Positions 7,408 to 9,393 of a stretch of DNA of 64,000 nt are shown here, piece after piece (the stretch's first letter is position 1; the number at the start of each line of letters is the position of its first letter). The stretch lies in NCBI RefSeq assembly GCF_045037415.1, contig NZ_CP173438.1. One strand, given 5' to 3'. A program made the translations under genes and the position numbers. The notes under the pieces are model-generated. The model had not been told where the DNA came from. It worked only from the letters and a program-made list of their open reading frames with translations, and did not search any database. Source of the stretch: Escherichia coli (lineage in GTDB: Bacteria > Pseudomonadota > Gammaproteobacteria > Enterobacterales > Enterobacteriaceae).

Positions 7408-9393
7408 ATGAGTACCACAACACGTAAATTTAAAACCGTTATCACCGATACGGGTGCCAAAAAATTAGCTCAGGCAGCCGCGCCAGATGGTAAGCCTGTC
7501 CGCCTGACTCATATGGCCGTGGGCGACGGTGGCGGCACGTTGCCCACACCAGACAGTAAGCAGACCCGTCTGGTGCATGAGGTGTGGCGACATACTGTTA
7601 ATCGCGTCATCCTGGACGCAACACATCAGAACCGCATTATTGCGGAGCTGGTTATTCCTCCTGAAACGGGCGGATTCTGGATCCGGGAAATTGGTGTATT
7701 TGATGAGCACGGCGATTTAATCGCGGTGGGCAATACTGCCGAAAGTTACAAGCCAGCCGTTGCCGAAGGGTCCGGTCGTGCACAAACATTTCGCACCATT
7801 CTGACCGTATCCAGCACTGCCACCGTGGTGCTTACCGTGGATAACACCATGGTGATGGCCACAGTGGATTACGTGGATGACAAACTGAAAGAGCATGAAC
7901 AGTCACGACGTCACCCGGACGCCTCGCTGACCGCAAAAGGCTTTGTTCAACTCAGTAGCGCCACTAACAGCGTGTCTGAAACGCAGGCTGCAACGCCGAA
8001 AGCAGTAAAGGCCGCGTATGACCTTGCTAACGGTAAATATACTGCGCAGGATGCCAGCACGACGCGAAAAGGCCTTGTCCAGCTCAGTAGCGCCACCAAC
8101 AGCACGTCTGAAACGCAGGCTGCAACGCCGAAAGCAGTAAAGGCCGCGTATGACCTTGCTAACGCAAAATATACCGCTCAGGACGCCACGACGGCACAAA
8201 AAGGGATAGTCCAGCTCAGTAGTGCCACCAACAGCACGTCTGAAACACTGGCCGCGACATCGAAAGCTGTTAAGGCGGTAATGGATGAAACGAACAAGAA
8301 AGCGCCCTTAAATAGTCCTGCACTGACCGGAACGCCAACAACACCAACTGCGCGACAGGGAACGAATAATACCCAAATCGCAAGCACGGCTTTCGTTATG
8401 GCTGCGATTGCCGCCCTTGTAGATTCGTCACCTGATGCACTGAACACGCTGAACGAGCTGGCTGCGGCGCTGGGCAACGACCCGAATTTTGCGACCACCA
8501 TGACTAACGCGCTTGCGGGTAAGCAACCGAAAGATGCCACCCTGACGGCGCTGGCCGGACTTACTACTGCGGCAGGCAAGTTTCCGTATTTTACGGGGAA
8601 TGATGTCGCCAGCCTGGCAACCCTGACAAAAGTCGGGCGGGATATTCTTGCGAAATCGACCGTTGCTGCCGTTATCGAATACCTCGGTTTACGAGAACTC
8701 GGCACAAGCGGGGAGAAAATACCGTTACTCAGTACAGCGAATACCTGGACCAATCGACAAACATTCAGCGGTGGCCTTTCTGGGGAACTGTCCGGCAATG
8801 CCGCTACTGCAACAAAGCTGAAAACAGCACGAAAAATTGCTGGAGTTGGTTTTGATGGTTCTAGCGATATTTCAATTAGTGCCAAAAATGTCAATGCATT
8901 TGCACTCCGACAAACAGGTAATACTGTTAATGGTGATACATCCGTTGGATGGAATTGGGATAGTGGTGCATATAACGCCATGATTGGTGGTGCATCTGCA
9001 TTAATTCTTCACTTTAATATAAATGCTGGTAGCTGTCCTGCCGTACAATTCCGTGTGAATTATAAAAATGGTGGCATTTCCTACAGGTCGGCTCGTGATG
9101 GTTATGGGTTTGAATTAGGTTGGTCAGATTTCTATACCACGACACGAAAACCTTCAGCGGGAGATGTTGGTGCATATACGCGGACAGAATGTAACTCAAG
9201 GTTTATTACAGGTATTCGCCTTGGCGGTCTGTCATCTGTTCAGACATGGAATGGTCCCGGCTGGTCTGACAGGTCAGGTTATGTCGTTACGGGTTCAGTT
9301 AACGGAAACCGTGATGAATTAATTGATACAACACAGGCAAGGCCAATTCAGTATTGCATTAATGGGACGTGGTATAACGCGGGGAGTATTTAA
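7408..9393 (+). CDS. tail fibre protein (P2 gpH / Mu S-like), current-orientation C-terminus
   Basis: 661 aa; conserved N-terminal region, three tandem ~40-aa phage tail-fibre repeats, C-terminal part lies inside the invertible segment. Confidence 0.85.
   Translation: MSTTTRKFKTVITDTGAKKLAQAAAPDGKPVRLTHMAVGDGGGTLPTPDSKQTRLVHEVWRHTVNRVILDATHQNRIIAELVIPPETGGFWIREIGVFDEHGDLIAVGNTAESYKPAVAEGSGRAQTFRTILTVSSTATVVLTVDNTMVMATVDYVDDKLKEHEQSRRHPDASLTAKGFVQLSSATNSVSETQAATPKAVKAAYDLANGKYTAQDASTTRKGLVQLSSATNSTSETQAATPKAVKAAYDLANAKYTAQDATTAQKGIVQLSSATNSTSETLAATSKAVKAVMDETNKKAPLNSPALTGTPTTPTARQGTNNTQIASTAFVMAAIAALVDSSPDALNTLNELAAALGNDPNFATTMTNALAGKQPKDATLTALAGLTTAAGKFPYFTGNDVASLATLTKVGRDILAKSTVAAVIEYLGLRELGTSGEKIPLLSTANTWTNRQTFSGGLSGELSGNAATATKLKTARKIAGVGFDGSSDISISAKNVNAFALRQTGNTVNGDTSVGWNWDSGAYNAMIGGASALILHFNINAGSCPAVQFRVNYKNGGISYRSARDGYGFELGWSDFYTTTRKPSAGDVGAYTRTECNSRFITGIRLGGLSSVQTWNGPGWSDRSGYVVTGSVNGNRDELIDTTQARPIQYCINGTWYNAGSI
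7936..8290 (+). repeat. three tandem ~120-bp in-frame repeats inside tail fibre gene (phage tail-fibre repeat motif ..VQLSSATNS.SETQAATPKAVKAAYDLAN..)
   Basis: Direct comparison of DNA 7936-8055, 8056-8175, 8176-8290; copies 1 and 2 nearly identical, copy 3 diverged. Confidence 0.8.
8672..8697 (+). other. gix/hix-like 26-bp invertase recombination site (left)
   Basis: TTATCGAATACCTCGGTTTACGAGAA; matches the Mu gix site as I recall it at about 22/26 positions; lies at outer end of left inverted repeat. Confidence 0.55.
8672..8812. repeat. inverted repeat, left copy (IR-L) of invertible tail-fibre segment
   Basis: About 97% identical to reverse complement of 11305-11445 (three mismatches over ~130 bp by eye). 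Confidence 0.8.

Follow-up and report, generated by a model that had tools for sequence, protein, structure and literature searches.

The results of our analysis indicate that the tandem array in the tail fibre gene of this Escherichia coli prophage very probably consists of three PF03406 units, which are located towards the baseplate in the constant shaft of a gpH-type fibre and change in number via misaligned units. The array is contained in an open reading frame on the + strand of the 64,000-nucleotide stretch of DNA analyzed here, hereafter called the window (table 1). Its location in a tail fibre shaft, as proposed in the preliminary description, is borne out by the domain architecture of the protein and by its gene neighborhood. 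The N-terminal collar domain (PF12571) is followed by matches to PF03406 (Phage_fiber_2, "phage tail fibre repeat", IPR005068) that lie well above the gathering score of the family HMM (203 bits in three stretches with a cut-off of 22 in the Pfam scan), the best stretch being aa 217-258, which spans profile positions 1-42 of 42. Members of this family are found in phage tail fibres, where tandem arrangements of differing copy number are frequent, and this is also the situation here, the host protein being a fibre of the P2 gpH type (Peduoviridae): PF12571 is followed by shaft and tip, a chaperone gene lies downstream and the P2-type gene order V-W-J-I-H-G is present, with the baseplate genes V, W, J and I upstream of the fibre gene.

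Table 1. Features of the tail fibre gene and of the adjoining tip cassette (positions within the window).
Feature	Position	Strand or orientation	Remarks
Tail fibre gene, P2 gpH type	7408-9393	+	661 aa; "tail fiber protein" WP_021538277.1 at the same coordinates in RefSeq/PGAP
N-terminal tail-collar / baseplate-attachment domain	7423-7866	+	aa 6-153; PF12571, 180 bits
Antisense ORF	7903-8199	-	98 aa, TTG start; by-product of the repeats
Repeat unit 1 (A)	7936-8067	+	aa 177-220, KGFVQLSSATNSVSETQAATPKAVKAAYDLANGKYTAQDASTTR; in register with the reading frame
59-bp core of unit 1	7974-8032	+	exact match to 8106-8164; unit positions 39-97
Repeat unit 2 (B)	8068-8199	+	aa 221-264; 16 nt differences from unit 1
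Partner 59-bp core of unit 2	8106-8164	+	exact match to 7974-8032
Repeat unit 3 (C)	8200-8331	+	aa 265-308; first ~26 aa fit the repeat
Crossover-like site of invertible tip cassette	8672-8697	+	26 bp; ends the constant fibre part containing the repeats
Caudo_TAP chaperone gene	9396-9929		downstream of the fibre gene; PF02413
Inverted partner crossover-like site	11420-11445	inverted	26 bp; 0 matches expected by chance
Serine recombinase gene	11500-12099		follows the cassette; Pfam and annotation

The prophage extends over approximately 19.7 kb from the start of the window, adjoins serS and is P88-like (Xuanwuvirus), residing in E. coli ST131. At the DNA level, P88 and other Xuanwuvirus genomes match its fibre gene with 98% identity (98.4% over 1285 nt in the case of phage P88, a high value that agrees with an assignment to Xuanwuvirus as far as the fibre gene is concerned), and a 1293-bp query corresponding to the constant part of the gene matches chromosomes of E. 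coli O25b:H4-ST131 with 100% identity. The 661-aa protein was found on at least 1000 contigs with identity across the 430 aa queried, and the fibre allele is present with an identity of 99% or more in ~220 records from a set of 5,426 complete E. coli genomes. Downstream of the constant part, the two crossover-like sites listed in table 1 bracket a cassette of ~2.75 kb, which contains two chaperone genes together with an alternative, promoterless C-terminus of the fibre. The expressed tip (aa 495-661) is ~95% identical to Mu S' (PDB 8ju3). Since the array belongs to the constant part, a change in the number of units would affect the shaft that is common to both alternative tips.

The array itself is far above chance. 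Tandem Repeats Finder places it at 7935-8276 with a period of 132, 2.6 copies, 86% matches and a score of 488, and a second repeat search of the window returns three copies with spacings of 132 and 132. Tandem repeats are thus present where the preliminary description had located them, but the period of 120 bp or 40 aa given there does not hold, the true period being 132 bp or 44 aa; the proposed 40-aa consensus is too short because a 4-aa linker (STTR or TTAQ) was left out. The characterization of the units as near-identical is likewise correct in part: it applies to units 1 and 2, which share 116 of their 132 nt (88%) and 38 of their 44 aa (16 nt and 6 aa differ), but not to unit 3, which has 53 mismatches with unit 1 and 49 with unit 2 over the full unit (60-63% identity). 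In the register of the repeat search, the first 96 nt of unit 3 are 75% identical to the reference copy based on unit 1, and Tandem Repeats Finder detects DNA similarity in this unit up to ~8276. After its first ~26 aa, unit 3 diverges into a conserved junction motif (...KKAPLNSPALTG) and its second half becomes the next conserved motif (...VMDETNKKAPLNSPALTG). All the 16 nucleotide differences between units 1 and 2 fall outside an exact core of 59 bp, and the probability of an exact run as long as this one is ~0.0006 when 16 mismatches are placed randomly in 132 nt.

As markers we used the 16 sites at which unit 1 (A) and unit 2 (B) differ, six of which lie in the head and ten in the tail of the unit. 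The fibre of L003 (GCA_002886295.1, a draft contig of 6,691 bp) is 705 aa long and has four units in the order A, B/A, B and C. Apart from one extra unit, it agrees with the gene of the window at all 1,986 positions: the 528 nt that precede the array and the 1062 nt that follow it show no mismatch, and its units A, B and C are identical to those of the window. The extra unit, situated between A and B, carries B-type bases at all six head markers and A-type bases at all ten tail markers. The reciprocal arrangement is found in Citrobacter phage Shae_phiSM, in which the two-unit array consists of A/B followed by C, the first unit having A-type bases at 6/6 head markers and B-type bases at 10/10 tail markers. 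Every crossover chimera changes parent inside the 59-bp core, which we infer to be the exchange zone for copy-number change. Given that natural alleles differing solely by one unit have a mosaic junction that switches in this core, the number of units changes by unequal homologous exchange or by replication slippage between misaligned units, and the order A, B/A, B, C of L003 is the exact product that would be expected of either process within the core. Taken alone, these alleles would be compatible with a change from three to four units or from four to three, the junction unit, as an exact mosaic, being most simply read as derived. The earlier proposal that such repeats are prone to slipped-strand or recombinational changes in copy number is therefore sustained with respect to recombinational change by the chimera of the isogenic L003, by the reciprocal chimera of Shae_phiSM and by the presence of two to five units in relatives.

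According to the mechanism that we propose, the units would misalign and exchange or slippage inside the 59-bp core would then lead to the gain or loss of one 132-bp unit, always in frame. Each such event would make every chain of the trimeric fibre longer or shorter by 44 residues at a point between the domain that binds the baseplate and the tip that binds the receptor, and the shaft would be lengthened or shortened without alteration of either of these parts. The reciprocal B/A and A/B junctions offer a clear instance from nature of the shaft of a phage fibre being remodelled by unequal exchange while both of its ends are left intact.

The preliminary description had suggested comparing copy number among related prophages, and this comparison indicates that the number of units is not invariant, close relatives having 2, 3, 4 or 5 of them. 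Among the best 120 protein homologues, 84 have three units, 34 have four and two have five, with a strict 44-aa spacing and the same starting residue. Two units are present in P2 gpH, Shae_phiSM and two E. coli prophages; three are present in P88, with the same A-B-C series as in the window (1, 1 and 4 nt differences), and four in the P2-like phage P2_2H4. The P1-like phage vB_EcoM-673R5 was excluded, its 11 units being split over three reading frames in fragmentary CDSs. On a wider scale, the unit is carried by 1,395 of 1.84 billion representative proteins, with at most 17 matched stretches per protein (for example, a gpH-type fibre with five units in tandem and side fibres resembling lambda Stf with 11-12), and by 361 records of phage genomes, including lambda stf, P1/P7 S, Stx phages and Haemophilus HP2. 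Between the units of one phage there are 13-17 nt differences, as against 24-28 when the first units of two phages are compared; the smaller differences within a phage would fit ongoing homogenisation or repeated local duplication, namely concerted evolution.

On an epidemiological time scale, copy-number change in this array is rare; it is a slow form of modular evolution and not a programmed or fast switch. Neither of the 82-nt junctions, B/A and A/B, is present at 100% identity in the 5,426 complete E. coli genomes, in which their best matches reach 98.8% and 97.6%, and the isogenic four-unit protein occurs on very few contigs, as compared with the 1000 or more carrying the three-unit form. 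It follows that the array has remained stable while ST131 spread and that its change is slow. The length of the longest exact repeat at an offset of 132 varies with the allele, being 9-20 bp in two-unit alleles, 48-59 bp in three-unit alleles (P88 and the window) and 162-191 bp in four-unit alleles. Efficient RecA-dependent exchange in E. coli requires identity over at least some 25 bp, and slippage that is independent of RecA becomes more frequent as closely spaced direct repeats grow longer. Because the exact repeat grows with the number of units, instability would be expected to rise with it, longer arrays being the more unstable and two-unit arrays being probably nearly locked.

A change in the number of units would presumably change the length of the fibre. 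Searching solved structures by sequence retrieved none of the unit, the only matches being the tips of Mu S/S' and one unrelated collar fibre. In an AlphaFold2 monomer model of aa 1-345, built with a 51-sequence alignment, the collar domain is confident (pLDDT 84-97) and the repeats are unreliable (pLDDT 29-57), the sole recurring feature in this low-pLDDT part being a helix of ~12 residues per unit (197-208, 241-252 and 286-294). Comparison with the PDB using Foldseek matched the collar domain alone, to phage tail or arm proteins (9h4p and 9fko with E <= 0.001; 6hhk more weakly, with E = 6e-3), the repeat region being without match. The cryo-EM study of the Mu virion built only the N-terminus of gp49, Mu S containing one unit (PMC11915804), and in rotary-shadowed fibres Pf2 has been presumed to take the shape of a small globular bead (Ghosh et al. 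2012; PMC3368898). Our search of the literature on the copy number or fibre length of the PF03406 repeat, including the P2 pseudotyping paper, found nothing specific.

The fibre appears to tolerate different numbers of units, judging from the finished phage genomes having two (P2), three (P88) and four (P2_2H4) and from the occurrence of one tip with three as well as with four units. Another possibility is that repeat number represents an adaptive setting, with the reach of the fibre being tuned to the depth of O-antigen or capsule and the recurrent gain and loss of units being selected. The presence of two to five units with one baseplate domain, the finding that three and four units both occur with the very same tip and the concerted evolution of the units would agree with this possibility, under which the number of units would constitute a second, slower host-range dial beside the invertible tip. 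We nevertheless consider it unlikely, since isogenic variants are very rare and phages with two, three or four units fit tolerance as well as tuning.

It seems quite improbable that copy number differs through swaps of whole fibre modules between phages, without any misalignment of units inside one gene. Tail fibre genes are indeed strongly mosaic, the unit is dispersed in lambda stf, P1/P7 S, Mu S, Stx phages and HP2, and tips vary between close relatives; however, the window and L003 form an isogenic pair with zero differences in the flanks, and the junction units are made only of the diagnostic bases of their own neighbors and switch within the core that these have in common, which would not be predicted from the import of modules. 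In any case, the swapping of modules and the misalignment of units are not mutually exclusive processes.

We attribute very little probability to a third explanation, namely that the differences in copy number are artefacts of assembly, short-read assemblers being able to collapse or over-traverse a 132-bp repeat with a 59-bp core. The allele of L003, lying on a draft contig of only 6,691 bp, could by itself be such an artefact, for an assembler that went round the loop (core, unit-1 tail, unit-2 head, core) twice would yield exactly A, B/A, B, C. Yet the same four-unit architecture is also present on a 5.2-Mb contig, the prophage of which is ~95-97% identical to that of the window and has private substitutions; moreover, the complete chromosomes NZ_CP137737 and NZ_CP135646 contain A and B/A followed by a unit with B-type head and C-type tail, which implies a further exchange, and the finished genomes of P2 and Shae_phiSM, P88 and P2_2H4 differ in the number of units as described above. 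Short-read assemblies of P2-like prophages can nonetheless mis-count units in a 132-bp array such as this one.

The antisense ORF that had been considered a spurious product of the repeats exists as described and is a passive by-product of them, not a gene. Its stop-free span tracks the number of units, extending over 90, 134 and 178 codons with two, three and four units, respectively, and the codon changes between units 1 and 2 number 6 synonymous and 6 non-synonymous in the sense frame, versus 2 and 10 in the antisense frame. A Pfam scan of this ORF gave sub-threshold matches only, which were rejected as chance. Further long antisense open frames lie in the fibre gene, e.g. at 8178-8981. That the ORF encodes a real small protein, as its 98 aa and a match to Phage_holin_3_7 (20 bits, E = 7e-4) might suggest, can practically be dismissed, because this match is under the gathering score of 25.4 bits, the open frame merely lengthens or shortens with the number of units, the codon changes are those expounded above and other long antisense frames occur in the same gene; it should be left out of gene annotations.

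The repeat family of the fibre and its variable copy number have already been catalogued, and the gene is a common, annotated prophage gene; for the former reason, little new follows from the array unless an effect of fibre length on host range is demonstrated. The closest known systems are P88 and the prophages of other ST131 genomes, which resemble the window in their A-B-C units, in the constant part (98%) and in the invertase-linked tip cassette; there is essentially no difference between the fibre of P88 and that of the window, which is the common allele. P2 gpH similarly has PF03406 directly after the PF12571 collar domain, with a 44-aa spacing and 85% DNA identity between P2 gene H and the fibre gene, but contains two units (the first unit plus a terminal unit of C type) instead of three; fibres of its class are trimers placed on the baseplate wedge protein gpI/gpJ, and that of the window was modelled as a monomer. 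A PF03406 unit is also held by Mu S (aa ~105-150), P1 Sc and lambda orf-401, and in Mu and P1 it lies upstream of an invertible tip, as in our fibre; Mu S, P1/P7 S and lambda Stf differ from the latter in having a single unit and different N-terminal attachment domains.

Bacterial contingency loci present a comparable change in length that is mediated by repeats inside a gene for surface interaction, but the array of the window is distinct from them in its 132-bp unit, which remains in frame and produces no on/off frameshift, as well as in the rarity of its change. Shaft repeats that set the length of a fibre are well known in the adenovirus fibre, with its 15-residue repeats, and in the repeated motifs of T4 gp34/gp37. 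These are likewise in-frame modular repeats of a trimeric fibre, variable in number between relatives, although their sequences, and presumably their folds, are unrelated to PF03406.

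Recombined forms of the 44-aa repeat units of the fibre gene appear in two complete E. coli chromosomes (NZ_CP137737 and NZ_CP135646), which carry a unit of the unit-1 type, then a chimera with the head of unit 2 and the tail of unit 1, and finally a chimera joining the head of unit 2 to the tail of unit 3. The presence of this third unit after the first two implies that at least two exchange events succeeded one another in that lineage.

The same repeat unit recurs in other fibres. The P1-like phage vB_EcoM-673R5 (ON470615.2) contains 11 copies at positions 3000-4500; they fall in three different reading frames, where the annotation gives fragmentary CDSs, a splitting that could reflect either sequencing frameshifts or decay of the fibre gene. 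Two lambda-Stf-like side-fibre proteins, with 11-12 matched stretches each, show a higher-order repeat in which the 44-aa unit is followed by a unit of ~61 aa with ...AAGKAPSSHTHPWNQITGVPTASLTA; the fibre repeat unit has therefore been amplified within larger blocks too.

The antisense ORF overlapping the repeats (7903-8199, minus strand) gives a Pfam match to Phage_holin_3_7 (20 bits, E = 7e-4) that lies below the cut-off of 25.4 and that we judged to be due to chance; the product is not hydrophobic.

Further prophage features of the window.
Feature	Position	Strand	Remarks
DUF6645 protein, 625 aa	2061-3938		between lysis genes and tail genes
Crossover-like site, 26 bp	8672-8697	+	inverted partner at 11420-11445
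Alternative fibre C-terminus, promoterless	10487-11380	-	between the 26-bp crossover-like sites
Crossover-like site, 26 bp	11420-11445	-	inverted partner of 8672-8697
Serine recombinase gene	11500-12099		
Hok/Gef family toxin gene	19473-19613		prophage right end, directly before serS; RefSeq annotation, collinear ST131 record

Downstream of the repeats, region 8672-12099 is an invertible tail-fibre tip cassette, with two divergent Caudo_TAP chaperone genes inside the pair of crossover-like sites. An inverted repeat of 170 nt (8668-8837 versus 11280-11449, 89% complementary), far exceeding these sites in length, runs inward from them, and because of this inward reach the first ~50 codons are nearly alike in both alternative tips. 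The expressed tip of the fibre is ~95% identical to Mu S' (PDB 8ju3).
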